Counted from the first letter of the stretch, positions 27,730 through 58,310 are shown. The stretch is 64,000 bases of DNA from Candidatus Omnitrophota bacterium (GCA_043814605.1 JBDRJV010000002.1:26374-90373); one strand, 5' to 3'. The notes: a model not told the origin generated them from the letters alone. Translations and numbers: made by a program.

Positions 27730-27837
27730 AATGGAACCCCCACGGGCTAAAGCCCGTGGTTCCTGGGGTGGAATACTCAAGCGGCCTCCTTTTATCCGCG
27801 CCATAAATGGGCGCGGTTTTAGGCCGCGGATGTATAA
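27730..27837 (+). repeat. GC-rich structured ~105-nt interspersed repeat, copy A.
   Basis: The sequence AATGGAACCCCCACGGGCTAAAGCCCGTGGTTCC…CCGCGCCATAAATGGGCGCGG…GGCCGCGGATGTATAA contains two perfect hairpins. It is about 60% GC in a roughly 32% GC background. Copies at 30410 and 58201 are more than 90% identical. Confidence 0.7.
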
Positions 27838-27907
27838 AAAAATCCGGCTGATAGAAATAATCCCGGGCAAAGGCACCGGAGCTTTAAAAAAACACGTATT
27901 AAGGTTC

Positions 27908-29347
27908 TTAGCGCAAAAACATATTAAAAAACTTTACCACCGGATTGAAAAAGATTCTCATAATTTCGGCAGAATTTTTGTGCATTTTAGGTTTTAAACT
28001 TTTAAATTTTTTATTTAAAATATTCATTTCAATAGTTAAGATAATTATTGTCAGAATCATCGCAACCGTATTTGTCATCGGGAAACTAAACCAAACTCCA
28101 TTAAGGCCGTAAAAATGTGACATAAAAAATATTATTGGTACAAAAATAAATATCTGACGCATAAGCCCGAGAAAAATTGCCTGAATCCCTTTACCTACAG
28201 ACTGAAAATAACGCGCACTTAAAATGTGAATTGCTGTAAGCGGTGTTGTCAGCATTGATATTCTCAACACATAAGCGCTTAACTTAATCAGCAAATTGTC
28301 ATTGCGGCAAAACAATTGGGTTATGGATTCCGCAAAAATCATCAAAAAAATCACTAATATTGAAGTTATTAAAAAAGTTACACTACAGGAAGAGCGAAAA
28401 ACATCTTTTACTCTTTTAAAATTTTTAGCGCCATAATTATATCCGATCAGCGGCTGCATGCCCGCGGCCATCCCAAAAGTAAATAAATGGATTAAAGACA
28501 TTACCGGAAAAGCAATTCCCATTGCCGCAATGTCAACTTCTGAACCAAAAATAAGTATTCTGGAATTTAAAATCCCCACCTGTATACTTGCGGCAAAATC
28601 CATCAAAGCCGGAGAAAGGCCTAAATAAATTATTCTTTTTACATTAATTAGTTTTAATTTCAAATTCTGAATTTTGATATGAATAATACCCTTTTTATTC
28701 ATAACATAAATAACGCCCATAAAAACAACTGCTGCTTCGGAAATAATTGTGGCTAACGCTGCTCCGGTTGTACCCATTTTAAAAATAAAAATAAAAATCG
28801 GATCACATATTAAATTTATAATTGTTCCAGCAACAATCATCATTGTTGCATATAAAGGATTACCCTCGGACCGGATAAGAAAGGTAAAAGTAAAACCATA
28901 AAAGAAAAGAATCGTCCCCGAAAAAATAATCATCATATAACCGCGCGCATGCGGAATAATCTGTGGATTTATCGTAAAGAAGGAAATCAGATAATCAAAA
29001 AAGAATAACCCCAAAAAAGTAATTACTGTTCCAAAAATTGTCAGTAAAGTAAATGTATTCCCAAGTATTTCCTCAGCTTTATCGATTTTTTTCTTTCCTA
29101 AATAAATAGAAATTAACGATGATGAGCCGCTGCTAAAAAGCAGGCAAAACCCAAAGATAAACAGCATGATCGGGAAACAAAGCGTTACTCCGGCTAATCC
29201 TAATGCTCCCACGCCCCGGCCGATAAAAATCCGGTCTACAATATTGTACAACGCATGCAAGACTAAGCTAAAAATTGAAGGAATAGCAAATTTTGCTAAT
29301 AATTTTAAAATGGGTTTTGTCCCCATATCTTGAGCAAGGTTATTCAT
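27908..29347 (-). CDS. MATE-family multidrug/sodium efflux transporter.
   Basis: 479 aa with 12 TM segments and a MATE N-terminal signature (ILKLLAKFAIPSIFSLVLHALYNIVDRIFIG). Confidence 0.85.
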   Translation of the reverse strand: MNNLAQDMGTKPILKLLAKFAIPSIFSLVLHALYNIVDRIFIGRGVGALGLAGVTLCFPIMLFIFGFCLLFSSGSSSLISIYLGKKKIDKAEEILGNTFTLLTIFGTVITFLGLFFFDYLISFFTINPQIIPHARGYMMIIFSGTILFFYGFTFTFLIRSEGNPLYATMMIVAGTIINLICDPIFIFIFKMGTTGAALATIISEAAVVFMGVIYVMNKKGIIHIKIQNLKLKLINVKRIIYLGLSPALMDFAASIQVGILNSRILIFGSEVDIAAMGIAFPVMSLIHLFTFGMAAGMQPLIGYNYGAKNFKRVKDVFRSSCSVTFLITSILVIFLMIFAESITQLFCRNDNLLIKLSAYVLRISMLTTPLTAIHILSARYFQSVGKGIQAIFLGLMRQIFIFVPIIFFMSHFYGLNGVWFSFPMTNTVAMILTIIILTIEMNILNKKFKSLKPKMHKNSAEIMRIFFNPVVKFFNMFLR

Positions 29348-29467
29348 GGTTAATAATGCTTTCTATTGTTTTTTATTAGATAAAAGGGTAAGATTTTACA
29401 AAAAATAAGATAAATTTCAAGCCTATTTTAAAATTATACCAATTATTGGTTAGAAGAAAGATTTACA

Positions 29468-30157
29468 TTAATTATTTAATTCTTTGGCTGCTATTTCAAC
29501 AATTAATTTTACCCCCTTAGCCAGGGATATCTCCAGTTTTACAAAATCTTTTTCTTTTATCACGCTGTTAGAAATTATTCTAAATCCTTTATCATTCTCA
29601 AGCCCCAGCATCTTAAATAAAAACTCCAGCACTTGAGTAATATTCTGCGTATCTAAAGATTGCTGCAAAGAAGAAAGCTTAACAAAAACAGTGCTTTGAT
29701 CCTGGCTTAGTTCAACAGAAATATCTTTAACTAATTGTGTAATATTTTGTATATTATTAAAGGAAGCCTTTATTTTACCAACTATGTCTTTTTGTTCTAA
29801 AGCTTCTTTAATTATATTTTTTAATTCCAGCGCATCCCAGGGTTTGGAAATAAAACGAAAGATTTCACCCTCATTAATTGTTTTAACTAAACTATCAAAA
29901 TCACTATAACCCGAGACCATGATCCGCATCGTATCTGGAAATTCTTTTTTAGCTATTCTCAAAACTTCAAATCCGTTCATTCCGGCCATTCTCTGGTCAC
30001 AAAGAATTAAATCTATTTTTTTCCGGCGTAAAATGTCCAGGCCTTCTGCCCCGTTAGCAGCAGTAAAAATATTATACTCTTTTTCAAATATACGTTTAAA
30101 TAAATGCAGTATATTTTCTTCATCATCTATACATAATAATGTATAAGTTTTGTCCAT
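29468..30157 (-). CDS. Orphan response regulator (REC plus an uncharacterised C-terminal domain).
   Basis: Receiver motifs (LLCIDDEENI…DLILCDQRMAGMNG…MVSGY). The last ~100 aa show no recognisable output domain. Confidence 0.7.
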   Translation of the reverse strand: MDKTYTLLCIDDEENILHLFKRIFEKEYNIFTAANGAEGLDILRRKKIDLILCDQRMAGMNGFEVLRIAKKEFPDTMRIMVSGYSDFDSLVKTINEGEIFRFISKPWDALELKNIIKEALEQKDIVGKIKASFNNIQNITQLVKDISVELSQDQSTVFVKLSSLQQSLDTQNITQVLEFLFKMLGLENDKGFRIISNSVIKEKDFVKLEISLAKGVKLIVEIAAKELNN

Positions 30158-30409
30158 TTTAATTTATCCTATAAAAATTATTTCCGCTGCGAACACTCTT
30201 TCTTATCTGCTTTTTTGTTTAAAGAAAATACTATTTTTGTTTTTTTTGTGCCAAAAGCTTTTGCACCAATTCATCAATTTCTGATTGAGAAAGTTTTCTG
30301 TTTGGGTCATGGGGAGGCTTGATTTCATTTTTATTGTCTTTTTTTTTCACAAACACACCTTATTTTAAACTTTCTTAATTATGTCAAAATATAAATTTTC
30401 TACCACTTA

Positions 30410-30513
30410 AATGGAACCCCCACTAAAGCCCGTGGTTCCTGGGGTGGAATACTCAAGCGGCCTTCTTTTATCCGCGCCATAAATGGGCGCGGTTTTAGGC
30501 CGCGGATGTATAA
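30410..30513 (+). repeat. GC-rich structured repeat, copy B, with a 4-nt deletion in hairpin 1.
   Basis: Same element as 27730-27837, in the same orientation. It lacks GGGC in the first stem. Confidence 0.7.
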
Positions 30514-30643
30514 GCAAAATAAAAGCGCCTAAATATTACCTTTGCAATAGACTATAATTATTAATGATATAATTTTACAATTTATTGAAAAATTATGCAA
30601 GGAAAAGAAATCTTTAAAGGCAGTAGCTAGAAGTACACTGCGT

Positions 30644-32074
30644 TTAATTCTTTGTTAATATAAAAAAGTAAGTAACCCCAAAATCGTCTGATTCAACAGA
30701 AAGAGCCGCAGGGCTAAACCCGCTATCATAAAACAACTTTACCACTTCATCCTTATTGCGGGGAATAAAAGACCAATTACAAAACCAGTCCGGCGCAATA
30801 GGCGCAAAAGTCTTTTCTTTATTCCTGTGAGTTACCAGCAATTTTCCCCCAGGAGCTAAAAGTTCATATAATTCTTTAAGTAAATCTGCCAGAATATCAT
30901 TTTTTAAATAATCCATTAAATTTATACTATAAATTAAATCTTTTTTTCCGTAACAGTGGGCCGATGCTTTATCATTAATTAAATCCAAAACATCTTTTTT
31001 CACTAATTTAAATTCAATATTTTCCGGTAGCTCTTTTAAAGTTGAGTCCCGCAAAAATTTTAAAGCTTCGAGGTTAGAATCAAAACAAGTAAAAATAATG
31101 TGTTTTTTTGTTTTAATTTCAAACAGTAACTCTCTAATTTCCCGGCACGAACCACAATTGAGATTTAAAATATTAATCTGAGCCAGCGGGCTCACTTGGA
31201 TAAAACTTTTAATTTTTTCCTTTAAATTATCCTTCCTCTGCCGTATGGCTACAGCATAAGGACTCTTTAAAAATACTTTATCAAAACAAAAACCAATATT
31301 ACTAGATATCGGCTTATTCTCATAAATCATTTCATTAATTTCAAAATCCCTTTTGTATCCCGGTTCGCTTTCTAACGCTTTTTTCACAATTATGCTTTTA
31401 TAAATCCAGGTTCCGGCTAGTGTTCTAAAGTTATCCTTAACTTTTTGTATCATTGTTTTATCCGAAATCAATTCTTCCAAACAATACCCTTTTAATAAAA
31501 TTTTATCATTAATATGCTCTAATTCTTTTTCTTGGCCGGGAATATATTCTTGTTTTTTTAAAGTGGAACAAAAATCCGAGACTTCATTTATATAATCTAA
31601 AACATCTTGAGAAAAGAAATGAGATATTTCTTTTTTTTCTGATAAATTTATATCTTCATTTAAAAATTTGTCGATTTGAATTTTAATTAACTCTTTTCTT
31701 AAAAAATCTCTTTTTTCATTGCCGATATTTAAAAATTCTGCCCCGTATAAAGATGTATTTTTTGATTCATTTTTATTCCAAATAATCCGGGCTTTGGCTT
31801 TAAAAGTCCGGCGATTATTCGGCAAATGTATTTTTAAGGAAATATGGGAAAGAGGAATTTTTTCTGATTGCTTGCTTTTTGGGAATTGTTTAGCGTCTTT
31901 GAATTCTTCCGGTTTTTTAGATTTCTTCGATTTTTTAGATTTTTTAGATAGGCTAAAGCTTAATCCTGTTTCACTAAAATCAATTACACTCGCACTTATC
32001 TTATCGGAAAGATCAACTTTAAGACGAGTTTTTATCCGAGGGCACAATCTTTTTTCTTCACTGCTTAAAACCAC
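30644..32074 (-). CDS. PilZ-domain / class-I SAM-dependent methyltransferase fusion protein.
   Basis: N-terminal RxxxR (RLCPRIKTR) and D-x-S-x-x-G (DFSETGLSF) PilZ motifs. A KKSKKSKKSKK low-complexity linker follows. The C-terminal Rossmann methyltransferase motifs are ILNLNCGSC, DLIYSINLMDYL and LAPGGKLLV. Confidence 0.6.
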   Translation of the reverse strand: MVLSSEEKRLCPRIKTRLKVDLSDKISASVIDFSETGLSFSLSKKSKKSKKSKKPEEFKDAKQFPKSKQSEKIPLSHISLKIHLPNNRRTFKAKARIIWNKNESKNTSLYGAEFLNIGNEKRDFLRKELIKIQIDKFLNEDINLSEKKEISHFFSQDVLDYINEVSDFCSTLKKQEYIPGQEKELEHINDKILLKGYCLEELISDKTMIQKVKDNFRTLAGTWIYKSIIVKKALESEPGYKRDFEINEMIYENKPISSNIGFCFDKVFLKSPYAVAIRQRKDNLKEKIKSFIQVSPLAQINILNLNCGSCREIRELLFEIKTKKHIIFTCFDSNLEALKFLRDSTLKELPENIEFKLVKKDVLDLINDKASAHCYGKKDLIYSINLMDYLKNDILADLLKELYELLAPGGKLLVTHRNKEKTFAPIAPDWFCNWSFIPRNKDEVVKLFYDSGFSPAALSVESDDFGVTYFFILTKN

Positions 32075-32272
32075 CAGAAACCACCTTCTTTCATAAGTGG
32101 ATAGCTTTTTATTTTTACAAGAAGATCTTATCTGCCCCCTTTCCTTTAGTTAATTATATCTGAATATGACGATAAACTCAAGGTCAAAACAAAATATTAA
32201 TTTTATTTTAATAGCACAACGGCTTAAAGATTTTACCCTTAAGCCGTTGAAATTATTAATAGTTAACTTAAT

Positions 32273-33229
32273 TTATTTTTTGCGGCCTGAGCCTCCCATT
32301 CCACCGCGGCTGCCACCTCTTTGCTGCTGTAATTGGCCTTGACCTTGGCCCGGACCTTTATCACGATTATAACCAGGTCCTCCAGGGCCTCTGCCTTGGC
32401 CTGGGCCTTGCCCTAGACCTCCTTGGCCATCACGTTTATCTTTAATATCCTCTCTGCGATCTCTGATATCTTCCCGTCTATCTTGACGGTCTTCACGCCG
32501 ATCCATAACATCTTCTCTGCGATCGCGACGATCTTCACGACGGTCAAGGACATCTTCACGTCTATCCATTACATCTTCTGCTTTATCTTTGCGAATATTT
32601 TCACCTAATTTATTTATTTGTCTTTCTAGCCTGGCTTTCTCTGCTGGATCAGTTGTATTAGTCAGCTGCTCTTGAAGATTACTCATTTTATCCGCTTTAA
32701 TTTTATCATCCCGGCGATCACGAATATCTTCTTGCCTATCTCTGATATCCTCCTGCTTATCCCAATAATCTTCTTTCCGGTCACGTATATCTTCTCTGTG
32801 ATCCATTACGTCTTCACGGCGGTCACGGACATCTTCACGCTGATCGCGATAATCTTCACGCCGGTCTCTAAATTGTTCACGATGTTCTTGCCCGGCCTGT
32901 TTCTCTGTATCATCAACTTGACCGTCATTATTGCGGTCTAAACGGTTCTGAAATCTTTCTCTAACTCTTTCTCTTTCTTGTTCATCTATTTTTCCATTAT
33001 TATTAGCATCTATTTTCTGCTTACGTTCTTGCCAGCGGTGCCTTTCTTTTGCATCTATTGCTCCGTCATCATTGCGGTCAATACGATCCTGCTTTGAACC
33101 CGGGCGAAAACTTCCAACACCTGTTCCAGCCTCACCTGTAGACTCTTGCGCAAAATTCAAACCGCAAAAAACAAAAATAAATGCTACCAAAAATACTCCT
33201 GCCCATAAAAATTTACTGCTTTTAAACAT
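32273..33229 (-). CDS. Secreted repeat protein with EF-hand-like loops, RED/heptad repeats and a Gly/Gln-rich tail.
   Basis: Signal peptide. Three DxNxDGxID..E loops (DRNDDGAIDAKE, DANNNGKIDEQE, DRNNDGQVDDTE). More than 15 tandem DRREDxx 7-aa repeats, encoded by a 21-nt periodicity. The C-terminus reads GQGGLGQGPGQGRGPGGPG…GGSRGGMGGSGRKK. Confidence 0.5.
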   Translation of the reverse strand: MFKSSKFLWAGVFLVAFIFVFCGLNFAQESTGEAGTGVGSFRPGSKQDRIDRNDDGAIDAKERHRWQERKQKIDANNNGKIDEQERERVRERFQNRLDRNNDGQVDDTEKQAGQEHREQFRDRREDYRDQREDVRDRREDVMDHREDIRDRKEDYWDKQEDIRDRQEDIRDRRDDKIKADKMSNLQEQLTNTTDPAEKARLERQINKLGENIRKDKAEDVMDRREDVLDRREDRRDRREDVMDRREDRQDRREDIRDRREDIKDKRDGQGGLGQGPGQGRGPGGPGYNRDKGPGQGQGQLQQQRGGSRGGMGGSGRKK

Positions 33230-33322
33230 TTCGCCACCTCCTTAATTTATCCTTTTCCTGAACTTTGAACCCTTAAAAATTAAATATTAAATATTCAAAT
33301 AATATATAATATTTTATATGTT

Positions 33323-33739
33323 TTATTTCACAAAATCAAAGTAAATTGCTAAAATCAAAGCCACAGCCGATAAAACAAAAATAAACAAATAATTAATTTG
33401 CTCCTTTTTAGAGCTCAGACTGCAAAGAATTTCACCTAAGAAATTATAATCGGAATCTTTTAGTTTTTCACGCGCATTAATTCTCTGGAAAATTTGTGTT
33501 TTTTCTATTCTTTTCGACCGGGAAATTATAATTTTAAATTTATAAACAAAAAACACCGTAAATCCAATTATCCCCACATACCAGGAAATTTTAGCATGCA
33601 AAGGATTGACATGAATTAATATTGTAATTAAGCGGATTGCTACAGTAGCAATTATGCCGATTAAGAAAAATATCCAGGAACTAAAAGAATCCTTACAATT
33701 TCTATAACTTGAGCAGGTTTTACATTGTTTTTTGTCCAT
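33323..33739 (-). CDS. Hypothetical Cys-rich membrane protein.
   Basis: CKTCSSYRNC N-terminus followed by about three TM helices. No family was recognised. Confidence 0.4.
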   Translation of the reverse strand: MDKKQCKTCSSYRNCKDSFSSWIFFLIGIIATVAIRLITILIHVNPLHAKISWYVGIIGFTVFFVYKFKIIISRSKRIEKTQIFQRINAREKLKDSDYNFLGEILCSLSSKKEQINYLFIFVLSAVALILAIYFDFVK

Positions 33740-33749
33740 TTAATTATCC

Positions 33750-34988
33750 TTATAATTTACCGTTATGAAATCCCGGGGGAACCTTTTCCCAAGGGTATCC
33801 CTGTGCAGCTTTTTCAACTCCCAAACAAAAAAGTTTTTTCATTCGATCCGGATCAAACATTTCCTTTCGCTCAAACACATAGTCAGAAGGGATATAAGCC
33901 AAATTAAAATCACCTTTTGAGTTTTCGGTAAAAATATAAAGCCGGTACAAATCTCCCAATCCTTGCGCATTGACCATTGTATCTACCGTGCGTTCTGTAA
34001 TTGTACTCAGTTTATCCGGAATTTCTTTCCACACCGGGTTTAAATATCCGTTACGAATAATATATAATTGTAATTTTGTATGATAAATATCTATGCCTCT
34101 TTTATCAAAAGCATCTCTAAATCCTTGCAAAACACAAAAAAGAAAAAACACTTGTTTGGCTGTGCCTCCGTCAACATGCATTTCGTCATAACTTTTTCCC
34201 TCAACCTGAACATCGAAAAATACCGGAGGAAAAGCCACGGGAATAGCTGCCGAGGCTAAAATAACCTTACGAAATAATTTTAACGATTCTTTGTTTCCAA
34301 ACGAGGCAATTCTGCCCATATCCCAAATCACTAGGCTTTGTGCATCTAAATTCGTTGTCCCGACATAAAGACGCCTGCCTTTGGCATGTTCTTTCGCAAT
34401 TTCCGTTAATAACTCCAGATCAATATGTTTATCCAATAATCGCTTAAGCGGCCAGTTACTGGCAAAAGAATTACTGAAAAAAAGCGTGAATAAGCTTCTT
34501 TTCCGCATAATATCCCGGGTGGAAATAGAAGTATAAAGGCATTCAAGTTTTTCATCATATTCACTGCCCAAAAAAGCAAACGGAGCAATAATTGCTCCGG
34601 TACTAATACCGGTAACAACTTTAAAAACAGGCCGGGTTCCGTGTTCGGACCAGCCTTTTAAAACCCCGGCTCCATAAGCTCCGTCTGCAGAACCGCCGGA
34701 AATTGCCAGAACCGGATAAACTTTCACCCCATTTTCATCTTGTAAAAAATATTGGCCGGACTCCTGAACCATAGAAGTAACCATATCTTGATAAATCATT
34801 TCATTAGGGCCATCGGCAAAAATCCGGATATCTTCCATTCCATAAATTTGTGCTTTTTGATACAAATTAACCGGTATTGCGTGACGAAACCTGGCACATC
34901 CGGAGATAATAAAAATTATCACAAAAAAAACTGTTAAATTTTTAAAAAAAAGGCAGTTTCTGGACAATTGAACCTCTTTAATTATCAT
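33750..34988 (-). CDS. Patatin-like phospholipase.
   Basis: Oxyanion GGSADGAYGAG (GGxxxG), nucleophile GISTGAI (GxSxG) and catalytic-Asp DGG (VDGGTA). It has an N-terminal signal/TM segment. Confidence 0.8.
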   Translation of the reverse strand: MIIKEVQLSRNCLFFKNLTVFFVIIFIISGCARFRHAIPVNLYQKAQIYGMEDIRIFADGPNEMIYQDMVTSMVQESGQYFLQDENGVKVYPVLAISGGSADGAYGAGVLKGWSEHGTRPVFKVVTGISTGAIIAPFAFLGSEYDEKLECLYTSISTRDIMRKRSLFTLFFSNSFASNWPLKRLLDKHIDLELLTEIAKEHAKGRRLYVGTTNLDAQSLVIWDMGRIASFGNKESLKLFRKVILASAAIPVAFPPVFFDVQVEGKSYDEMHVDGGTAKQVFFLFCVLQGFRDAFDKRGIDIYHTKLQLYIIRNGYLNPVWKEIPDKLSTITERTVDTMVNAQGLGDLYRLYIFTENSKGDFNLAYIPSDYVFERKEMFDPDRMKKLFCLGVEKAAQGYPWEKVPPGFHNGKL

Positions 34989-35350
34989 AATGTTCTTACC
35001 GACTTAACTTGAAAATACGTTAAAAATTTTTTAGCACGATTTGTTTCTTCTCTTGAATATTTTCTTCTTCTCAGCTTATTAATTAATTCTTTGTCTTCTG
35101 AATCTTTAATCTTTTCTAAATACAACCTCTTTCCTTTATATTCTTTTGTATTTTCTAAAAACAAGTAAACAGCATTCGGATTTTGTGTTAAATTTTTGTG
35201 TGTTAGTTTATTTGACATGATAAATGCACAAATTTTTTCATCAATAAAATGCGGCCGGGCATAAATAGCTGCATCAACTATACCTTTAGCACTAGCTGTA
35301 CTTAAGATTCCGATCCCTTTCGTATTCTCAAAATAATCAAATAAATCCAT
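34985..35350 (-). CDS. PNPOx-like/FMN-binding split-barrel family protein (putative).
   Basis: 121 aa. GILSTASAKGIVDAAIYARPHF resembles the N-terminal strand pattern of the family. It overlaps the patatin start by 4 nt. Confidence 0.4.
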   Translation of the reverse strand: MDLFDYFENTKGIGILSTASAKGIVDAAIYARPHFIDEKICAFIMSNKLTHKNLTQNPNAVYLFLENTKEYKGKRLYLEKIKDSEDKELINKLRRRKYSREETNRAKKFLTYFQVKSVRTL

Positions 35351-35439
35351 AACTATCCCCCCATTATTAAACTCTAAATCCTAAATCTAAATACTAAACT
35401 CTATTTTAAAAAATGTAGTGTCTCAATGTAAAGTTTACA

Positions 35440-35600: not shown

Positions 35601-35659
35601 CACCTTTTACCGAATAATATAAATTTGTAAACACATCCTTGAGATTATACATAAAAAAA

Positions 35660-37288: not shown

Positions 37289-37660
37289 TTAAACCATTAA
37301 TCTTCTAACTTGATAACTCTTATTACCAAAGTTTATTAATAGTCCAACTTTATATCCTGATGCTTTTAGATAAGATAAAACCTGTGATTCAAATACAGCA
37401 GGGATATTACCGCTAAAAGCTTTCAGTTCTGTTACAATCTTGTCGGCGATGACTAAATCGAGCCTACATTTACCAATGTTTTTACCCTGAAAACAAACAT
37501 CAAAACTTTTCTCATTTTGATACTTTAAACCCTGTTCTTTTAAAGTTATTTTTAATGGTTTATGGTATATACTTTCGTTAAATCCAGGACCAAGTTTACT
37601 ATGCACATTATAAGCACAAGCGATTATTTTCTCAGTTGACGGATCCCTCTCTTTAATCAC
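37289..37660 (-). CDS. GxxExxY-family protein (PD-(D/E)XK-like).
   Basis: HSKLGPGFNESIYHKPL…CRLDLVIADKIVTELKA…KVGLLINFG matches the family consensus. Confidence 0.7.
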   Translation of the reverse strand: MIKERDPSTEKIIACAYNVHSKLGPGFNESIYHKPLKITLKEQGLKYQNEKSFDVCFQGKNIGKCRLDLVIADKIVTELKAFSGNIPAVFESQVLSYLKASGYKVGLLINFGNKSYQVRRLMV

Positions 37661-43421: not shown

Positions 43422-43811
43422 TCATTCCTGGTTAAAGATTTTATTGATTTGATCAATCAAAACCTGAGCATCAAACGGCTTTGTCACAAAGCCGGCTATG
43501 CCTTGGCGCTCAATTAATATTTTCAACTGCTGATTATCCGTTCCGGTCATAATAATCACCGGTACTTTTGGGATAATCTCTTTAATTTTATTCATAACCA
43601 TAAGCACGGTAAGGCCGTCGGCTTCTGGCATCATTACATCTAAAAGCACTAAGTCCGGCTTTTCAAAAATTAGCTTACTCAGGCATTCTTTACCGCTATG
43701 AGCTACAATTGTTTCGAATTTATTTGCTCTTAGACGTGATTCCACTAACTTTGTCAAATTCTGATCATCATCTACCACTAATATTTTCTTGGCCATTTTT
43801 CCCCTCCTCAA
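43422..43811 (-). CDS. Single-domain CheY-like response regulator.
   Basis: 129 aa, receiver domain only (ILVVDDDQNL…DLVLLDVMMP…IIMTG…K). Confidence 0.8.
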   Translation of the reverse strand: MRRGKMAKKILVVDDDQNLTKLVESRLRANKFETIVAHSGKECLSKLIFEKPDLVLLDVMMPEADGLTVLMVMNKIKEIIPKVPVIIMTGTDNQQLKILIERQGIAGFVTKPFDAQVLIDQINKIFNQE

Positions 43812-43904
43812 TAAGCCCGCGACAGCGGGCGAATTAATCTCGAACCCTTTTTGGGTAAGAGACCTTTAATTAAAATATAAGAAAAACCTTAAATAACTAA
43901 TTCA

Positions 43905-44058
43905 TCAATCTATCAATTTAGCAATCTAGCAATTTAACAGTTTAACAGTTTATCAATTTATCAATTTAACAATATAACAATATAACAATTTAACAATTTA
44001 ACAATTTAACAATTTAACAATTTAACAGTTTAACAATTTAACAATTTAACAGTTTAAT
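43905..44058. repeat. Tandem array of about 19 copies of the 8-bp unit AATTTAAC and variants.
   Basis: Directly readable units: AATCTATC, AATTTAGC, AATTTAAC x many, AGTTTAAC, AATATAAC. The same unit recurs at 54806-54872. Confidence 0.8.
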
Positions 44059-45088
44059 ACTTCCTGTTCTTTTCTCCTCTTAACCTTCCGGTATACATAT
44101 AATTCATCATTAAACTGGTAATATATGCCGTAATTTTTAAAATCATTATACTTTCCGTATCTTTAATAATTAAATCTAAATCCTTAGATCTTTTAATTAA
44201 GGTTTTAACCAATCCATCAACAATATATTTTTTCTCACCTGTCCAGGTTGAAACACTATTAATTATTTGTTCTCTATATTTGTGAATTACTTTGTAGGCT
44301 TTTATGTGTTTTTTGTCTTCTTCAGTATTTAAACAAAAAATTCGTTTTAAATTTGTATCGTGAAAATCAAGAAAATCTTCCGCATAGGTATGTTTTTTTT
44401 TCTTATAATAATTTGCTAATGTTGAGGTTAGTTTTGCCGCCTGCCAGAATTTTTTCCCTTTTTCAACCCAGGGGTCTTTATCTTTTATTTGCGCCATTAA
44501 CTTATCTACATATTTAAGCTTTTGTAAAGCTCCCCAGCCCTTATATTGATTTTGCCAGTCAATATCCGGACAAAGCCAAACTGCAAACGTTTCGGCAAAA
44601 TCTTCATCCGGATGGTACTGTGCATAATAATCTTCCAAATGCCTGACAAAATTCTTACTGTAGAGCCGGAAACGGTAAGTATCCTTATATTCCTGATCAA
44701 ACGCACCAAAAAAATTTTGCCAGTTTGTTTTTTTGTACAACTTATAGGCATAATTTATAGCATGGCCTGTTTCGTGGCGCAATAACTGCATACACCAGGT
44801 TTTTGTCCCGCCTTCGACACTCAGCATCATTTGTTTTTCTAATTTCATCAAAGCCGGATGCGCCAGGAAAAAGGGAATACCCACAACCGGTTCGCCGTCC
44901 GGCGCAAGCCACTCATCCGCTAAATAACATTGCGGTTTGAATTTTATGCTTTTTGCCTGAAGTTCGTGATAAAGTTTATCCACACATTCCGCTAACCAAC
45001 ACTGATCTATGCTCAACGGTAAATCCCGAATCCTGGTTTTCAGCAAATCTACTTCGGGAACATTATCTAAATTTATTTTTTGTGCCAT
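44054..45088 (-). CDS. Putative zinc-dependent hydrolase (HExxH protein).
   Basis: 344 aa with a single HETGH motif (LLRHETGHAINYAY). No signal peptide and no confident family assignment. Confidence 0.45.
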   Translation of the reverse strand: MAQKINLDNVPEVDLLKTRIRDLPLSIDQCWLAECVDKLYHELQAKSIKFKPQCYLADEWLAPDGEPVVGIPFFLAHPALMKLEKQMMLSVEGGTKTWCMQLLRHETGHAINYAYKLYKKTNWQNFFGAFDQEYKDTYRFRLYSKNFVRHLEDYYAQYHPDEDFAETFAVWLCPDIDWQNQYKGWGALQKLKYVDKLMAQIKDKDPWVEKGKKFWQAAKLTSTLANYYKKKKHTYAEDFLDFHDTNLKRIFCLNTEEDKKHIKAYKVIHKYREQIINSVSTWTGEKKYIVDGLVKTLIKRSKDLDLIIKDTESIMILKITAYITSLMMNYMYTGRLRGEKNRKY

Positions 45089-51363: not shown

Positions 51364-51718
51364 TTTTCTTTTGGCCCATTAATATTTTTTAAAAACTTAA
51401 CGCTGTTTTAAACATAAAAATAAATTCATAACTCTAGTTTTATGAACCTGTTCTTAAAACAAGAAAATACATTAATATCTTCTTTTGCTAATACTTATTT
51501 TAAACTATGCAGTCTAAAACTTATTTTACAACACTTGATTTTTAAAAGCAAAACAAATATAATAAGGACCAAACATAAAATCTCAGGTCACAAGTTCCAA
51601 GCTGCAAGCAATAATTAATAAGCCTATTCGGATTCTGAATTATAAATTTTAGATCCTAGATATAGGAAAAAGCTGGATAAAAATACGCGAAAACCAAAAC
51701 CGAAAAGGGAGTAAAACT

Positions 51719-52465
51719 ATGTATAAAGTAGTATTGTTACGTCACGGCGAAAGTATTTGGAACAAGGAAAATAAATTCACCGGATGGACAGATGTTGATC
51801 TTTCTGAAAAAGGGCTGGAAGAAGCCAAACAAGCTGGTATTTTACTCAAAAACGAAGGATATACATTTGACATTGCGTTTACAAGTGTACTTAAACGAGC
51901 TATCCGCACCTTGTGGATTACCCTCGATGAAATGGATTTAATGTGGATTCCTGTACACCGCTCCTGGCGGCTTAACGAAAGACATTACGGTGCATTACAA
52001 GGATTGAACAAGGCAGAAACTGCAGTCAAATACGGAGATGAAAAAGTGCTAATCTGGCGCCGCAGTTATGAGACTCCGCCGCCAGGATTGGAAAAAGAAG
52101 ATCCGCGCTGGCCAGGCCATGACCCCAGATACGGGGACATGAAAGAAAGAGAAATCCCGCAAACCGAGTGCCTTAAAGATACAGTTACCCGGTTTTTGCC
52201 TTACTGGCATGAAACTATTGCCCCGGCTATTCGGTCTGGAAATAATGTTTTAATTGCTGCACACGGTAACAGCCTGAGAGCATTAGTAAAATATTTAGAT
52301 GATATTTCAGAAGATGAAATTGTAAAATTAAATATCCCGACCGGAGTTCCTCTGGTCTATGAGTTAGCTGAAAACCTCAAACCGATAAAGCATTATTATC
52401 TTGGGGATCAGGCAGCAATTCAAAAAGCAATGCAGGCTGTGGCTAATCAGGGAAAAGCAAAATAA
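51719..52465 (+). CDS. gpmA: 2,3-bisphosphoglycerate-dependent phosphoglycerate mutase.
   Basis: [27 protein letters not shown] catalytic-His motif and the full dPGM fold. A GGGAG ribosome-binding site lies 8 nt upstream. Confidence 0.9.
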
Positions 52466-52630
52466 ATCAGATTCTAGGCCTTAGATACTGGATGCTAGTT
52501 AACAGAAAAAAGCGTTATCCTAAAAAGTTTAATAGTAACTAGCTGATGGCTGATAGCTCTTAGCAAAAGCAAAAAAAACAGATCGAAACCAAGCAACGAA
52601 GGACGAGAGACGAAAAAGCAAAAAAAACAT

Positions 52631-52676
52631 AAACAGGCAGCAGTTAAAATTTAACTTGTTGCCTGTTTTCTTTTTA
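52631..52676 (+). terminator. Intrinsic terminator after gpmA.
   Basis: Stem ACAGGCA / TGCCTGT with a nested GTTAAA/TTTAAC hairpin in the loop, then TTTCTTTTTATT. Confidence 0.55.
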
Positions 52677-52707
52677 TTATAATTTTTTAGTCTTTTGTCT
52701 CTGGTCT

Positions 52708-53571
52708 TTAGTCTGATAGATATTCACTCGCAATGTAGGAACTGCGTACATACGGCGCGCTTTCCACATGTTTAAAACCTAATTCCTGGGCTCTTATTTT
52801 ATAAAAAACAAAATCTTTCGGCTTTATGTACTCAACTACAGGGTAATAGTTTTTCCCCGGGGATAAATACTGCCCGATACTGAGAAAATCACAACGGCTA
52901 TTTTTTAAATCATCAAGCACAGTTAAAACCTCTTCTTTTCTCTCCCCTACTCCCAGCATAATGCCTGATTTTGTATAAATATAGGGATTAATTTCCTTGG
53001 CCAGTTTTAATATGCCCAAAGAGCGTTTATAGTTTGCCTGAGGCCGGATTTTTGGATATAAATCTGGTACAGTTTCCACATTGTGCGCAAAAATATCCGG
53101 ACAGGCTTTGGTTACACTTTCAATAGCAGCATAATCAGCTTGAAAATCCGGCACTAACACTTCCACTTTAATATCCGGATTAATTTTACGGATTGCTTTA
53201 ATTGTGCGCACAAACATCTCAGATCCCTGATCCTTTAAATCATCCCGCGTTACACTGGTAATTACTACATGCCTCAGGCCCATTTTTTTTACAGCCTGGG
53301 CCACATTATCCGGCTCGTTAAAATCAGGCACTAGCGGCTTTCCCGTATCAACCGCACAGAAATTACAATTTCTCGTACAAATACTACCTAATATTAAAAA
53401 AGTCGCAACTCTCTTCGAAAAACATTCCCCGATATTCGGGCATTGCGCTTGCTGGCAAACTGTATTCAGTTTTAGCCCTTTAAAAAGACGTTTCAATTCT
53501 TCACACCCTTTTAAATTAATTTTTTTATTCAGCCAGGACGGCCGGCGTATTTCCGATGTTTTTTCTATCAT
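52708..53571 (-). CDS. lipA: Lipoyl synthase.
   Basis: N-terminal RRPSWLNKKI, auxiliary-cluster Cys residues (CQQAQCPNIGEC) and radical-SAM CTRNCNFC. Confidence 0.9.
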   Translation of the reverse strand: MIEKTSEIRRPSWLNKKINLKGCEELKRLFKGLKLNTVCQQAQCPNIGECFSKRVATFLILGSICTRNCNFCAVDTGKPLVPDFNEPDNVAQAVKKMGLRHVVITSVTRDDLKDQGSEMFVRTIKAIRKINPDIKVEVLVPDFQADYAAIESVTKACPDIFAHNVETVPDLYPKIRPQANYKRSLGILKLAKEINPYIYTKSGIMLGVGERKEEVLTVLDDLKNSRCDFLSIGQYLSPGKNYYPVVEYIKPKDFVFYKIRAQELGFKHVESAPYVRSSYIASEYLSD

Positions 53572-54376
53572 TTTCTCTAATTTTAGTCTGCCGATAATTG
53601 TTCCAATTTTTTGTATTATATTTTTCTTTTATCAGCCTATTCGTTAATTCTTTTTCAAAATCAGTCAGCTCTGCTTTATTTAATTCTAAAGAAAACATTT
53701 GTTTGAAATTATCAATTAAAGCACAGCGAAGCTGATCAAAATCAATATTTTTATTCAAAGCCTGCGATAACGAAATAATTTTATTTTCAAGATTAACAAA
53801 TTTCTCTTTAAAAATAGATTTTATTTCTCCAAAATCTAAAGCTAAAGGAAGAGAACCGTGCTGAAAAATAAAATTTTTTTCTCTTTTTTGTGCATTGCCG
53901 CCAATTTTTTTATTATTTATTAAAATATCGAATTTTTCCCGGGTGGCAAAACAAAAATTAGATTCATCCCCGTGCGTATAATCTCCTTTTGTATCGGCAA
54001 AATAAGCACAAAGGCCCAGGCTTTTATAAGTATTGATAATAAATGCAGTTAATATTTTAAAACTTTTTCTTACGGAATCTCCTAAATCCAGATCATTTTT
54101 TGTGCAAACCAGGCTATAAGTAAGTTCCTGATCGTGAAAAATTGCTTCTCCGGCGCTGATGCGTCTTACATATTCGATTTGTTTTGCTTTGCATAAATCA
54201 AGATGCAAAACAGCCTGCGGATTTTGCCTTATTCCTAAAGATATGCTGGGTTTCTGCCAACTGTATATGCGTAATGTAGGCCGAATAAGGCCTTGCTTAT
54301 AGGATTGAAATATCGCTTCATCAATAGCCATATTGGTATAAGCATTGCCAGGATCAGAAAGTATTAAACGCCACAT
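53525..54376 (-). CDS. Lipoate-protein ligase / octanoyltransferase-family protein (LplA/LipM-like).
   Basis: BPL_LplA_LipB catalytic domain (PTLRIYSWQKPSISLGIRQN…GEAIFHDQELTYSL). It overlaps the lipA start by 47 nt. Confidence 0.7.
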   Translation of the reverse strand: MWRLILSDPGNAYTNMAIDEAIFQSYKQGLIRPTLRIYSWQKPSISLGIRQNPQAVLHLDLCKAKQIEYVRRISAGEAIFHDQELTYSLVCTKNDLDLGDSVRKSFKILTAFIINTYKSLGLCAYFADTKGDYTHGDESNFCFATREKFDILINNKKIGGNAQKREKNFIFQHGSLPLALDFGEIKSIFKEKFVNLENKIISLSQALNKNIDFDQLRCALIDNFKQMFSLELNKAELTDFEKELTNRLIKEKYNTKNWNNYRQTKIRENDRKNIGNTPAVLAE

Positions 54377-54428
54377 AGCAAATTGGTAAACTGTTAAAGG
54401 GTTATACTGTTAAATTACGAAAAACTAA

Positions 54429-54803
54429 TTATTTTGTTAATTTTGTATCTGTATAAGAGATAAGATGGTTTATTTCTACAGGCAGTTTATTTAACTCTTT
54501 GGTTATATATTCACATTGTTCTTTGGTCAGTAATTTTCTTTTCTCTGCTTTATTAATCCAGTCAAACGATTCCTTTAAAGAGCCAAAGCTGTAACGATAA
54601 AAATTAATTTTATCTTTTTTAAAATATCGGCCGAAACCTTCTGCTATATTTGCAGATATTGAATCAACCGATTCTACTAATTGCTGGCCAACAGTACGTT
54701 TAGCAAAATAATCCCATTTTGTTACAATATCCCAAATATAATTAGATAAACTGAAGGAAATTTTATAAGAACTAATGTCTTCCAATAATAAATACTTTTT
54801 CAT
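54429..54803 (-). CDS. Four-helix-bundle protein (rRNA intervening-sequence protein family).
   Basis: GQQLVESVDSISANIAEGFGR… fits the family consensus. No SD precedes it; the 8-bp tandem repeat abuts its start codon. Confidence 0.6.
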   Translation of the reverse strand: MKKYLLLEDISSYKISFSLSNYIWDIVTKWDYFAKRTVGQQLVESVDSISANIAEGFGRYFKKDKINFYRYSFGSLKESFDWINKAEKRKLLTKEQCEYITKELNKLPVEINHLISYTDTKLTK

Positions 54804-54805
54804 AT

Positions 54806-54872
54806 TGTCAGTTTAACAGTTTAGCAGTATAACAATTTAGCAATTTAACAATTTAACAGTATAACAATTTAT
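54806..54872. repeat. Second array of 8 copies of the 8-bp AATTTAAC tandem repeat.
   Basis: Units AGTTTAAC, AGTTTAGC, AGTATAAC, AATTTAGC, AATTTAAC x2, AGTATAAC and AATTTATT lie between the gcvPB stop and the four-helix-bundle start. Confidence 0.75.
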
Positions 54873-56317
54873 TTTCGCCATCTCAGGTTTAAATCGCGTG
54901 CGGCTTTTGTTTCATCCAGCCTTTTCACCGGCATATTCTGCGGAGCATTTTTTAAAACTTGCGGATCTTCTTGAACCAGTTTTGCAGCAGTAATCATCAC
55001 TGCAATAAAATTATCTAGAGTTTCTTTGGATTCTGTTTCTGTCGGCTCAATCATTAAGGCTTCTTTAACAATCAACGGGAAATATACTGTCGGAGGATGA
55101 ATCCCCTGCGCAATCAGATATTTTGCAATATCTAAGGCACTGGTCCCCTTTTCTTTAGCTTTAGCTAAGGATAAAACAAATTCATGCATACAAATACGAT
55201 CATAAGGAACATCAAAATATTTTTTTAAAAGCACGCGGACATAATTTGCATTAAGTACAGCCAGTTCTGCAACTTCGATTAATCCCGCAGCCCCGAGCAT
55301 CATGATATAAGCATAACTTTTAAGGATAACGCTGAAATTACCGCAAAACGGCGCAATATAACCTAAGGATTTTGGGGCATTATAATTTAACGCATATGTT
55401 CCATCCGTGCGTTTAATAACCCGAGAAATTGGCAGATAAGGTTCCAGTTTTTTGTTTACTCCCACCGGACCCGCTCCCGGACCGCCGCCGCCATGAGGAG
55501 TAGCAAAAGTTTTATGCAGGTTTAAATGCACAATATCAAACCCTAAATCACCTGGCCGAGCCTTACCTAAAATCGCATTAAGATTAGCTCCATCATAGTA
55601 GACCAGTGCTCCTACTGCATGCGCAGCATCACAAATTTGTTTAATTTGGGGATTAAAAATCCCAAGCGTGTTGGGACAAGTTAACATTACTCCGGCAATA
55701 TCTTTATTTAACTTACTTTTATACTCATCAAAATTCATACAGCCATTTTTATCAGTAGAAACAACAATAACTTCATAACCAGCTATTGCCGCACTTGCAG
55801 GATTAGTGCCATGCGATGAATCCGGAACAATAATATATTTACGTTTTTCATTATTAAAACGATGATATGCGGCAATGATCATTGCCCCGGTAAGTTCTCC
55901 GTGCGCCCCGGCTAAAGGCTGCATTGTAAAAGCACTCATCCCGGTAATTTCCGCTAAAACTTTTTCTGTTTTATAGACTACTTCTAAAGAACCTTGCGCT
56001 AACATCCCGCCGCCCCTTAATTGAGGCATTAAAGGATGCAAATTTATAAACCCATCCAGACTTGCAATTTTCTCTGTAAATTTAGGATTATACTTCATTG
56101 TACAAGACCCCAGCGGATAAAAATTTGTATCTACGGAAAAATTCATACGGGATAAATTAGTATAATGGCGTACAACATCTAATTCAGAAACTTCCGGCAA
56201 ATCTGCACTTTCTGCTCTGGCATATTCTTTTGGGAATTTAAGATCTTTTTTTACCGTGCACTCAGGAAGCTTGAACCCGTTTGTCCCTTTTCGGCTTTTC
56301 TCAAATATTAATCGCAT
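54869..56317 (-). CDS. gcvPB: Glycine dehydrogenase (decarboxylating) subunit 2.
   Basis: PLP-Lys motif NLHKTFATPHGGGGPG. The likely start is MRLIFEK at 56317; the ORF extends to 56344. Confidence 0.9.
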   Translation of the reverse strand: MRLIFEKSRKGTNGFKLPECTVKKDLKFPKEYARAESADLPEVSELDVVRHYTNLSRMNFSVDTNFYPLGSCTMKYNPKFTEKIASLDGFINLHPLMPQLRGGGMLAQGSLEVVYKTEKVLAEITGMSAFTMQPLAGAHGELTGAMIIAAYHRFNNEKRKYIIVPDSSHGTNPASAAIAGYEVIVVSTDKNGCMNFDEYKSKLNKDIAGVMLTCPNTLGIFNPQIKQICDAAHAVGALVYYDGANLNAILGKARPGDLGFDIVHLNLHKTFATPHGGGGPGAGPVGVNKKLEPYLPISRVIKRTDGTYALNYNAPKSLGYIAPFCGNFSVILKSYAYIMMLGAAGLIEVAELAVLNANYVRVLLKKYFDVPYDRICMHEFVLSLAKAKEKGTSALDIAKYLIAQGIHPPTVYFPLIVKEALMIEPTETESKETLDNFIAVMITAAKLVQEDPQVLKNAPQNMPVKRLDETKAARDLNLRWRK

Positions 56318-57645
56318 AATACTGCCTCTAAACTTTCTGCACACTTAATAATTTCTTCTTTTGTTCTTTTTTCCGTAACAGTTACTAAAAGATAATTCTG
56401 CATATTTTTATAAAATCTGCTTAAGGGAAACCCACAGGCAAACCCCTTATTAATCATTTTATTCACAACTTCACCGGCATTTTGCGGCAGTAATACAGTA
56501 AATTCATTGAAAGTCGGAGAACGTTTTTTTACTTCCACCCCAGGGATTTGACCAAAAATTTCCTTAGCAAATTCCGCTTTTTTGTAATTAATTTCCGCTA
56601 ATTCTTTTAATCCTTGTTTGCCTAATAATGATAAATAAATAACTGCCCGCAAAGCACAAAGCGCTTCATTACTGCAAATATTAGAAGTCGCTTTTTCCCG
56701 GCGGATATGCTGTTCCCGTGCCTGAAGAGTTAAAACAAAACCGCGTTTACCATCTTCATCTACGGTTTCCCCGACAACTCTGCCCGGGATTTTACGTAAG
56801 TATTCTTTTTTTACAGCCATAAAGCCTAAATAAGGACCGCCAAAAGAAAGCGGCAAGCCTAAACTTTGTCCTTCGCCTGTAGCAATATCCACATCCATTT
56901 CCGCAGGGCTCTTAAGTAATCCTAAAGCAATCGGATATACCGATTGAATTAATAAAGCCCCTGCCGCATGTGCTTTTTTCACAATATCAGAATGGTCATC
57001 AATTACGCCAAAAAAATTAGGGTTTTGCACAATTACCGCTGCGGTTTTATCATCTAAATATTTATAGATTTCATCGCGGTAACTGTGTCCATGGACAACC
57101 TGAGTCTCGATAAACTCAACTGCCAAATTTTTTGTATAGCTATAAAGCATACTCCGGTAAACAAGATTTACGCCGCTATCCACAATTATTTTTCTGCGGC
57201 CGGTAATGCGTACTGCCATCATTGCGGCTTCATACAAAGCCGTGCCTCCATCATAAAGTGAAGCATTTGACGCGTCCAGTCCGGTTAATTGACAGATTAC
57301 GCTTTGGTATTCATAAATAGCCTGTAACCATCCTTGTGAACATTCCGGCTGATAAGGGGTGTAAGCTGTATAAAATTCAGAACGGCCGGCTATTGCATCT
57401 ACAGCCGCAGGAATATAATGGTCATAAAAACCTGCCCCTAAAAAATTAATGAGATTCGTGGCATTTTTTGCGGCCAGTTTTTTAAAATGTTCGATAACTT
57501 CAAACTCAGATTTACCTTCTGGTAAATTAAAAGACTGCGCTTTTAAATCATCCGGGATATCACAAAATAATTCATCAATTTTGGATACACCGATGGTTTT
57601 GAGCATTGATTTTATTTGTTCTTTAGTATGGGGAGTATATCCCAT
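56308..57645 (-). CDS. gcvPA: Glycine dehydrogenase (decarboxylating) subunit 1.
   Basis: 445 aa GcvPA homolog. Its stop overlaps the gcvPB start. Confidence 0.9.
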   Translation of the reverse strand: MGYTPHTKEQIKSMLKTIGVSKIDELFCDIPDDLKAQSFNLPEGKSEFEVIEHFKKLAAKNATNLINFLGAGFYDHYIPAAVDAIAGRSEFYTAYTPYQPECSQGWLQAIYEYQSVICQLTGLDASNASLYDGGTALYEAAMMAVRITGRRKIIVDSGVNLVYRSMLYSYTKNLAVEFIETQVVHGHSYRDEIYKYLDDKTAAVIVQNPNFFGVIDDHSDIVKKAHAAGALLIQSVYPIALGLLKSPAEMDVDIATGEGQSLGLPLSFGGPYLGFMAVKKEYLRKIPGRVVGETVDEDGKRGFVLTLQAREQHIRREKATSNICSNEALCALRAVIYLSLLGKQGLKELAEINYKKAEFAKEIFGQIPGVEVKKRSPTFNEFTVLLPQNAGEVVNKMINKGFACGFPLSRFYKNMQNYLLVTVTEKRTKEEIIKCAESLEAVLCD

Positions 57646-58031
57646 TATGAAAGCTCCTCTAAATATTTTAGATAATCAGCCGGTGTTATTAAATTATCTT
57701 TTTCTTTGTGATCAGAAACTTCAATAATTAGAAACCAACCCTTTTCATAAGGAGATTGATTAATTAATTCCGGCTGATTAACAACATCCTGATTTATTTC
57801 TCTAACTTTACCGGACAAAGGGGCATAAACATCTGATGCTGCTTTTACGGATTCAACTGTGGCGATTTGTTTTGACTGTACGCATTCTGCATTAATCTTA
57901 GGGAGTTCCACAAAAGTAATATCGCCTAACGAACCTTGAGCATAATCAGTTATGCCTATTTTAGCACGATTATTCTCAATTTTCACCCATTCATGCTCTT
58001 TGGTATACAATAAATCCTGGGGTACATTCAT
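57645..58031 (-). CDS. gcvH: Glycine cleavage system H protein.
   Basis: Lipoyl-Lys region (VESVKAASDVYAPLSGKV). The preferred start is MNVPQDLLYTKEHEW at 58031, with GGAGG 7 nt upstream. Confidence 0.85.
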   Translation of the reverse strand: MNVPQDLLYTKEHEWVKIENNRAKIGITDYAQGSLGDITFVELPKINAECVQSKQIATVESVKAASDVYAPLSGKVREINQDVVNQPELINQSPYEKGWFLIIEVSDHKEKDNLITPADYLKYLEELS

Positions 58032-58035
58032 AAAA

Positions 58036-58066
58036 TTCCTCCATAATTGTCCCGCTACAGCGGGAT
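58036..58066 (-). promoter_or_regulatory. Near-perfect 13-bp-arm hairpin/palindrome abutting the gcvH ribosome-binding site.
   Basis: On the gene strand: ATAATTATCCCGC-TGTA-GCGGGACAATTAT, immediately followed by GGAGG and the ATG. Confidence 0.4.
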
Positions 58067-58200
58067 AATTATGCCTCGCCACTGTAGATTTCTTTGCGTT
58101 TACTTGGCGGGCAAGTTAAAATTCCAGCCATAAAAAATAAATCCAGAAAACTATTGTTAGCTCTCAAACATTTTATTCTTTTGCAGATACTGTCTCTTAT

Positions 58201-58310
58201 TTATACATCCGCGGCCTAGAACCGCGCCCATTTATGGCGCGGATAAAAAAGGAGGTCGCTTGAGTATTCCACCCCAGGAACCACGGGCTTTAGCCTGTGA
58301 GGGTTCCATT
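58201..58310 (-). repeat. GC-rich structured repeat, copy C, inverted and lying inside the gcvT–gcvH spacer.
   Basis: Reverse complement: AATGGAACCCTCACAGGCTAAAGCCCGTGGTTCC…CCGCGCCATAAATGGGCGCGG…GGCCGCGGATGTATAA. It has about 6 differences from copy A. Confidence 0.7.

Follow-up and report, generated by a model that had tools for sequence, protein, structure and literature searches.

What are the near-identical, GC-rich and strongly folding blocks that recur in a 64,000-nucleotide stretch of Candidatus Omnitrophota bacterium (GCA_043814605.1 JBDRJV010000002.1:26374-90373; hereafter the window, with positions counted from its first letter): genes for a small structured RNA, or copies of a mobile repeat? 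An earlier note on this DNA had left both answers standing, describing the element either as mobile and REP/MITE-like (repetitive extragenic palindrome/miniature inverted-repeat transposable element) or as a family of structured RNAs. We conclude that it is probably a non-autonomous mobile DNA repeat without terminal inverted repeats or a target-site duplication, which resembles REPIN and PATE elements and would be moved in trans. This mobile alternative is supported by the clean insertion of one copy, by near-identical copies in both orientations, and by a decayed solo hairpin. The copies are:

27733..27835, plus strand: copy A unit, 103 nt, delimited by a single 103-column gap against the intact Smr gene of a relative (L005)
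27730-27837, plus strand: conserved block of copy A, including the preferred target bases
30413..30511, plus strand: copy B unit, 99 nt, lacking 4 nt of the 5' arm of hairpin 1 and carrying a single C>T substitution
58203..58307, minus strand: copy C unit, 105 nt, differing from A by four substitutions and an additional TT
808-850, minus strand: copy D, a diverged solo hairpin 1, recovered by blastn, nhmmer, an inverted-repeat finder, folding and alignment

The strongest evidence comes from copy A, which lies within a gene for a small Smr-domain protein and divides it as follows:

27640..27732, plus strand: 5' part of the Smr gene, MAKLKLDLHNIFNQKKSIQSELELIIREAVN, whose frame meets a stop 18 nt into the element
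27836..27997, plus strand: 3' part of the Smr gene, KKIRLIEIIPGKGTG...FVHFRF*, in a frame that differs from that of the 5' part
27605..27633, plus strand: promoter-like site in front of Smr, TTTACT-17-TATAAT, matching at 10 of 12 positions; context only, outside the element

Excising 103 nt restores an 84-aa Smr protein. A near-identical 83-aa version (106 nt excised) covers positions 1-77 of 77 of the Pfam Smr model (E = 6.7e-13), and a search of 5.8 billion proteins with this version found 4484 homologues. The best 120 of these 4484 are mostly 73-80% identical (one is 69%) over 98-100% of the query, measure 83-98 aa, mostly 83-85, and belong in the majority to Omnitrophota. The motif REAV-[D/A/E]-K-[K/R/G]-I runs across the junction in 17 of 17 aligned homologues, and the DNA alignment with the intact Smr gene of L005 shows one gap, of exactly 103 columns. 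Once the insertion is removed, the window's Smr frame contains neither stop nor frameshift and keeps all 47 invariant columns of the alignment, while departing at 3 of 11 nearly invariant positions. By these comparisons copy A is an exact 103-nt insertion in an otherwise intact, highly conserved gene. The gene is split because 103 nt is not a multiple of three and the upstream frame stops inside the element; the element also supplies an ATG in frame with the 3' part (open reading frame, ORF, 27731..27997). The ancestral site is GCTGTAAAT^AAAAAAATCC and the predicted empty site GAAGCTGTAAATAAAAAAATCCGG. Since AT stands at both junctions, the limits of the unit can slide by 2 nt (27731-27833 instead of 27733-27835), and the AA on either side of the block delimited in the earlier note is target sequence outside the element.

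Some further observations concern this Smr gene. It converges with a MatE gene on the minus strand, and the 3' ends of the two overlap by 90 nt (27908-27997). The 84-aa protein, at 75-80% identity, spans Omnitrophota, Atribacteria and Chlamydiales. In L005 (942-4988) its neighbours are REase-ARP and GmrSD_N genes, and a Y1 transposase gene is close by, an arrangement suggesting that this Smr family belongs to a defence island or a mobile setting.

The other copies agree with copy A in their limits. The three full copies lie where the earlier note had placed them (A at 27730-27837 and B at 30410-30513 on the plus strand, C at 58201-58310 on the minus strand), and they do differ in orientation as it had described. 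Two conserved 25-27-mers each have three exact occurrences in the window and none in 100 shuffles; by blastn, B is 98.9% and C 94.5% identical to A. The unit begins with ATGGAACCCCCACGGGC... and ends with ...GGCCGCGGATGTAT, and all three copies lose similarity at the same bases, their upstream flanks being unrelated. No reading frame is preserved across A, B and C. The claimed GC-richness (about 60% against about 32%) was confirmed, with 56-59% GC in the unit and 32-34% in the local 1 kb around A and B. GC averages 36.3% over the window (standard deviation 8.1% across 80-nt windows), and GC alone is not distinctive because coding regions reach similar peaks.

Copies B, C and D are extragenic, so that the description of the element as intergenic suits B and C but fails for copy A, which is inside coding sequence. 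Copy B is flanked by two minus-strand genes, a PilZ/methyltransferase gene whose stop is at 30644 and a response-regulator gene that starts at 30157, and forms with A a pair of direct repeats 2.68 kb apart that bracket the MatE and response-regulator genes. Read in the reverse-complement orientation, A and B fall 70 and 130 nt past the stops of the minus-strand MatE and PilZ/methyltransferase genes, respectively. Copy C occupies the gcvT-gcvH spacer, which measures about 439 nt here versus 59 nt in another relative (L006). In the rest of that spacer (58311-58470), a GC-rich stretch at 58311-58374 adjoins copy C; it does not recur elsewhere in the window and matches nothing in Rfam.

Reconstruction of the empty sites gave GCTGTAAAT^AAAAAA, CACTTAAAT^AAGCAA and GGTGTGAAT^AAATAA, with the common form T-R-A-A-T^A-A; the left flanks read TAAAT, TAAAT and TGAAT, and the opposite strand shows TTAT in all three. 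Terminal inverted repeats are absent: whichever of the three possible boundaries is taken, the initial 20 nt agree with the reverse-complemented final 20 nt at only 3-6 scattered positions, and no run of matches stands at the termini. There is a weak subterminal match between CCACGGGCTAAAGCC and GGTTTTAGGCCGCGG (12/15, p ~0.02 by shuffling). The left hairpin CACGGG-CTAAAG-CCCGTG and the right hairpin CGCGG-TTTTAGG-CCGCG are alike in inverted orientation, though at only 12 of 15 positions. No target duplication was found beyond the ambiguous dinucleotide AT at the junctions of A, B and C. The designation MITE-like is thus borne out as regards mobility but not in the strict sense of a MITE, for want of terminal inverted repeats and a real target duplication. 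A MITE of the TA-duplicating IS630/mariner type was considered and rejected, as the junctions disallow a TA duplication.

The secondary structure reaches both ends of the unit. In copy A it consists of:

27733..27763: hairpin 1, GGAACC-CCC-ACGGGC-TAAA-GCCCGT-GGTTCC, 12 bp with a 3-nt bulge, beginning at the unit's base 1
27781..27827: hairpin 2 as a whole, with a weak stem extension toward the 3' terminus (ATAC/GTAT)
27781-27787 with 27821-27827: outer helix of hairpin 2, GCGGCCT with AGGCCGC, in RNA and DNA folds
27796-27802 with 27810-27816: inner helix of hairpin 2, CCGCGCC with GGCGCGG, in RNA and DNA folds

The 12-bp bulged hairpin and the 7-bp CCGCGCC/GGCGCGG hairpin predicted earlier both appear in the folds. 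A GGGG...CUCC helix, also predicted, is absent from the minimum-energy fold, where a 7-bp GCGGCCU/AGGCCGC helix encloses the 7-bp hairpin instead. Against shuffled sequences the RNA fold of copy A scores z = -4.1 on the strand first read and -4.4 on the reverse strand, and its DNA fold -4.4 and -4.6 on the two strands, with the same two hairpins on both. For copy C the values are -0.41 on the strand first read versus -3.45 on the reverse complement. The 4-nt deletion ascribed to copy B is real: it removes CGGG from the 5' arm, and hairpin 1 is lost there. The compensated substitutions ascribed to copy C could not be found, as 0 of 26 pairs change on both sides: its two stem changes give an A·C mismatch on the strand first read and a G·U pair on the reverse complement, and copy D has G·U on the minus strand where the plus strand has A·C. 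Three one-sided changes of the same polarity would be expected by chance about once in 4 to 8 cases. We infer that the reverse-complement orientation carries the better-preserved structure.

Copy D was found by an unfiltered nhmmer profile (E = 0.0019) as well as by blastn and the repeat finder. It matches hairpin 1 only, its 3' half being near-identical to A and C. About 20 nt past the phoU stop, the minus strand of D folds into an 18-bp hairpin with U7 behind it, scoring z = -3.7 against -2.4 for the plus strand; copy D has the appearance of an intrinsic terminator for the pst-phoU operon. A hairpin followed by a U-tract, as in an intrinsic terminator, thus occurs in D on the minus strand and in none of A, B and C, whose hairpins are followed by AUUUAC, AUUUAA and AUUCAC. 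Copy B, with its deletion, and the solo hairpin D are decay products.

Taken together, an exact insertion, near-identical copies in both orientations and at unrelated loci, a shared target and decayed copies point to a mobile, non-autonomous element that was recently active. In the mechanism that we propose, an enzyme encoded elsewhere in the genome would insert the non-coding 103-nt unit, made up of two GC-rich hairpins reaching both termini, at A/T-rich T-R-A-A-T^A-A sites, leaving no terminal inverted repeats and no target duplication; the insertion would be recent. Elements of this build are typically moved as folded single strands by HUH/Y1 enzymes, as are PATEs derived from IS200/IS605 and REP/REPIN elements with their RAYT enzymes; less often, a recombinase crossing over at a 2-nt core (IS110 or IS607 types) is responsible, an alternative that the AT at both junctions would fit. 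For the present unit we judge the hairpin-recognising, single-strand route the most likely one. After insertion, the hairpins would probably act only passively on read-through transcripts. As to its kind, the repeat is a new sequence family of ordinary selfish DNA among the small dispersed hairpin repeats of bacteria.

Several observations weigh against this interpretation. No allele with an empty site turned up in the same population, and mobility rests on orthologues that are 75-80% identical. The geometry is unlike that of IS608, in that the left hairpin begins at the unit's base 1. By inspection, the 4 nt before the hairpins (ATCC, CCCA) do not pair with the putative cleavage sites TTAT and CCAT, and IS608-type guide pairing was rejected because the fit fails. 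The two end hairpins have their loops in inverted, not direct, orientation. Among about 60 window ORFs, Pfam searches identified no transposase, integrase, recombinase or RAYT. Searches of GTDB genomes, JGI metagenomes, IMG/VR, plasmids, phages and predicted proteins yielded no relative of the element. Finally, the copies examined are three full ones and one fragment, within a 64-kb window. Because no known end geometry fits, we also consider, as an unlikely alternative, that the unit could be the minimal substrate of an undescribed Omnitrophota transposition system: a hairpin-reading HUH enzyme of new geometry, or an AT-core recombinase, possibly RNA-guided (IS110 type), with one orientation doubling as a portable terminator hairpin.

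The remaining explanations give the copies a function in RNA or dispense with transposition. As a mobile terminator or 3'-untranslated-region stabiliser, like SPRITE or REP, the element would in its reverse-complement orientation end or protect upstream transcripts and be kept for that reason. Copy D is in that orientation a clean hairpin with U7 past phoU, A and B lie past the MatE and PilZ/methyltransferase stops in the same orientation, the G·U polarity favours that strand, and repeats of this kind are known (for instance SPRITE; PMC10969869). However, A, B and C have no U-tract and a terminator scan was empty there, copy C is reversed within the gcvT-gcvH operon, and copy B is without the relevant hairpin; moreover, such a role would be a consequence of insertion and still compatible with mobility. 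We therefore consider the terminator explanation unlikely. Less credible still is a role for the copies as genes or modules of a small structured RNA, whether an sRNA or a cis-regulatory RNA, with the structure as the object of selection. The strong predicted structure of copy A speaks for it, the two stem changes in C and the one in D that stay paired only on the reverse strand hint at selection on one strand, and small RNAs derived from MITEs are known, such as Coxiella QMITE (PMC10969869). Yet no covariation supports the structure, one-sided changes of this polarity being unexceptional by chance, and on the transcribed strand copy C folds no better than shuffled sequence. The copies share neither promoter nor terminator consensus and have unrelated upstream flanks; one lies in coding sequence, another has no hairpin 1, and neither an Rfam match nor a homologue in the other genomes searched was found. 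Beyond foldability and the three one-sided changes, nothing positive speaks for the RNA alternative of the earlier note, which is accordingly improbable.

Alternatively, copy A might be removed or bypassed at the level of RNA or translation, as by an intron-like process or ribosome hopping, and full-length Smr still be made. In favour, the Smr frame is otherwise open with its 47 invariant columns intact, the family is strongly constrained across phyla (75-80% identity), and the element supplies an ATG in frame with the 3' part. An open frame is, however, what a recent insertion would leave, as the 94-99% identity of the copies suggests, and the gene already departs at 3 of 11 nearly invariant positions. 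In addition, there is no match to a ribozyme or intron family, two of the three copies are intergenic, an in-frame UAA follows 18 nt into the element, and inspection revealed no take-off and landing codons that match at a spacing of 103 nt; we regard bypass as very improbable. Equally slight is the chance that segmental duplication, gene conversion or att-type scars, instead of transposition of a 103-nt unit, account for the copies. The arrangement of A and B as direct repeats 2.68 kb apart, flanking the MatE and response-regulator genes, would suit such an origin, but both flanks of copy A belong to one gene with exactly 103 nt extra, which largely refutes it; similarity ends at the same bases in three copies, the third of which is inverted and 28 kb away, and there is no integrase and no tRNA nearby. 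Among other candidates, att sites of an integrated element were rejected on the same absence of integrase and tRNA, an integron attC site because RYYYAAC/GTTRRRY cores and an array are lacking, and template or variable repeats of a diversity-generating retroelement because the differences are not adenine-specific.

The absence of a known RNA family counts in favour of a mobile repeat. On this point the earlier note was right as far as Rfam 15 goes, with no match in the window at the gathering score; at E<=10, the only hit around copies A and C was a 20-nt psRNA14 hairpin (17.8 bits versus a threshold of 60). The window contains no tRNA or tmRNA genes, and promoter and terminator scans found nothing inside copies A-C and nothing shared beside them. 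Pfam matches of the scanned window ORFs fall into housekeeping, transport, signalling, or small solitary nuclease-like families. As an exact pattern, GGTTCCTGGGGTGGAATACTC gave no match in GTDB species genomes or JGI metagenomes; ATGGAACCCNCACNGGNTAAA gave four in GTDB species genomes, all by chance and with the hairpin not continued; and CGCGCCATAAATGGGCGCGG gave three chance matches in GC-rich coding DNA of JGI metagenomes and none in IMG/VR. A composite of the element's four open translations matched nothing among 5.8 billion predicted proteins; therefore, no gene caller called an ORF across a copy anywhere. Comparison by blastn with plasmids and phages returned no match to the element, and an nhmmer profile built from the three copies, run without filters on the window and on all fetched loci, 33 kb of two Omnitrophota relatives among them, recovered only A, B, C and D. 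A literature search on Omnitrophota plus MITE found nothing relevant. As far as these searches reach, the repeat family appears to be confined to this lineage.

Short contigs of the same organism in ENA ERZ928008 and Logan ERR2191545, reached via three window proteins, are 100% identical to the window where aligned, and none extends to a repeat copy. Exact-protein look-ups for gcvT, MatE, TPR, PilZ/methyltransferase and gcvH returned no record. Two of the contigs (L012 and L013, from ENA and Logan; run ERR2191545) end at window position 30396, 16 nt from copy B and directly after TATAAAT, which resembles the target motif. Another contig (L011) aligns from its base 68 on, its first 67 nt being different, inside gene 62713..63990. 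Low coverage or strain variation could account for this difference and for the contig stops. A presence/absence polymorphism at copy B was rejected as unsupported, because both assemblies share the same low-coverage reads.

These results imply that in a lineage of uncultured Omnitrophota a small repeat has been active recently and can knock out a very conserved gene, here that of an 84-aa Smr nuclease. For annotation, the Smr gene here is a split pseudogene and not two small ORFs, and the GC-rich islands should not be taken for RNA genes; such 103-nt repeats can also confuse the assembly and binning of metagenome-assembled genomes. The structure of the ends, with no terminal repeats, no duplication and a fixed T-R-A-A-T^A-A target, provides a handle for finding the enzyme. 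The element has no bearing on any long-standing open question.

The host is an uncultured member of Omnitrophota; its GcvT equals a protein of an NCBI metagenome-assembled genome, the GcvT of the next relative being 61-62% identical. All identified genes of the window are on the minus strand except Smr and a histidine phosphatase gene (51719..52465), and GC skew is uniformly negative on the plus strand. Other features of the window concern short repeats and individual genes. A PF05635 ('23S rRNA intervening sequence protein') gene at 54429..54803 on the minus strand lies between gcvPB and lplA, flanked at 54380-54422 and 54809-54871 by oppositely oriented arrays of an 8-nt unit (TTTAACAA/AACAGTTT); in relative L006, gcvPB adjoins lplA without a PF05635 gene, and the gene with its arrays looks like a second, unrelated inserted cassette. 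The same 8-nt unit forms a tandem array of 20 copies at 43894-44057 (TAACAATT, 87% matches), between a response-regulator gene (43422..43811) and an ORF without Pfam match (44054..45088), the last bases of which it overlaps. A 25-nt repeat with an internal 8-nt period, AGTAACTAGCTGATGGCTGATAGCT, occurs twice with 88% likeness, at 52534-52558 on the plus strand and 58440-58464 on the minus strand, one copy directly past the gcvT stop and the other past the histidine phosphatase gene.

The motif TTTATTGTGACAATTGTGTGACAAAAT is present at 585-627 and 5162-5204 (84% over 43 nt), upstream of two paralogous pstS-like genes, the first of which (1 to ~530, minus strand) is 73% identical in DNA to 4231..5109. 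The direct TGTGACA repeats in this motif look like a Pho-box operator. Gene 32273..33229 (minus strand) contains repeats with a 21-nt period (7 aa) at 32443-32881 and has a weak EF-hand-like match. A gene for a small, solitary PD-(D/E)XK nuclease (PF13366, E = 3.4e-34) was found at 37289..37660 on the minus strand among redox and housekeeping genes.

We compared the repeat with known families of small elements. In common with MITEs such as Correia, ERIC, RUP, Chunjie and QMITE, which stay below 500 bp, code for nothing, occur in multiple copies and lie mostly between genes, it is small (99-105 nt), non-coding and present in three copies and one fragment in 64 kb; A/T-rich insertion sites, transcripts that would fold stably and occasional gene disruption are further points of likeness. 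Strict MITEs, however, have terminal inverted repeats of ~4-30 bp and flanking direct repeats and are typically AT-rich (PMC10969869), whereas this element is GC-rich and has neither terminal inverted repeats nor direct repeats beyond the ambiguous AT. Rickettsia palindromic elements are likewise palindromic repeats of about 100-150 nt that can sit in genes of an AT-rich genome, but they are in frame and translated with the host protein, while here 103 nt and a stop split the gene. Terminator-like small dispersed repeats share a hairpin that resembles an intrinsic terminator, and D behaves in this way; in contrast, a U-tract is missing from the full copies, and their sequence is unrelated to such repeats.

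Membership in the REP/REPIN or PATE groups, which come closest, cannot be demonstrated, because the IS608 pattern does not fit, the hairpins are only weakly alike and the enzyme was sought in the window only. PATEs are among the miniature elements derived from IS200/IS605. IS608 itself has hairpins that are set back from the cleavage sites by 19 and 10 nt and share one orientation on a given strand; in the present unit hairpin 1 begins with base 1, the loops are inverted, and pairing between guide and cleavage site fails on inspection. No TnpA or TnpB gene is present in the window, and the L005 locus, which does have a Y1_Tnp gene, contains nothing resembling the element (nhmmer). What the repeat shares with PATEs is the presence of end hairpins without terminal inverted repeats or target duplication, insertion beside a short conserved sequence (TRAAT, or TTAT on the other strand), and the fact that precise loss of the unit would restore the target.

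REP and REPIN sequences are mobilised by RAYT transposases of the Y1 HUH type. They differ from the present element in being extragenic by definition, whereas copy A is intragenic, and in numbering hundreds, not 3 to 4 copies within 64 kb; the window is also without a Y1_Tnp match, and the end hairpins are weakly alike (12/15), the right one being nested in a larger stem so that no clean REP doublet is formed. The shared features are a non-coding, GC-rich unit of about 100 nt, bulged palindromes near both ends with inverted loops, neither terminal inverted repeats nor target duplication, most copies just downstream of genes, and solo hairpins as decay products, here represented by D.

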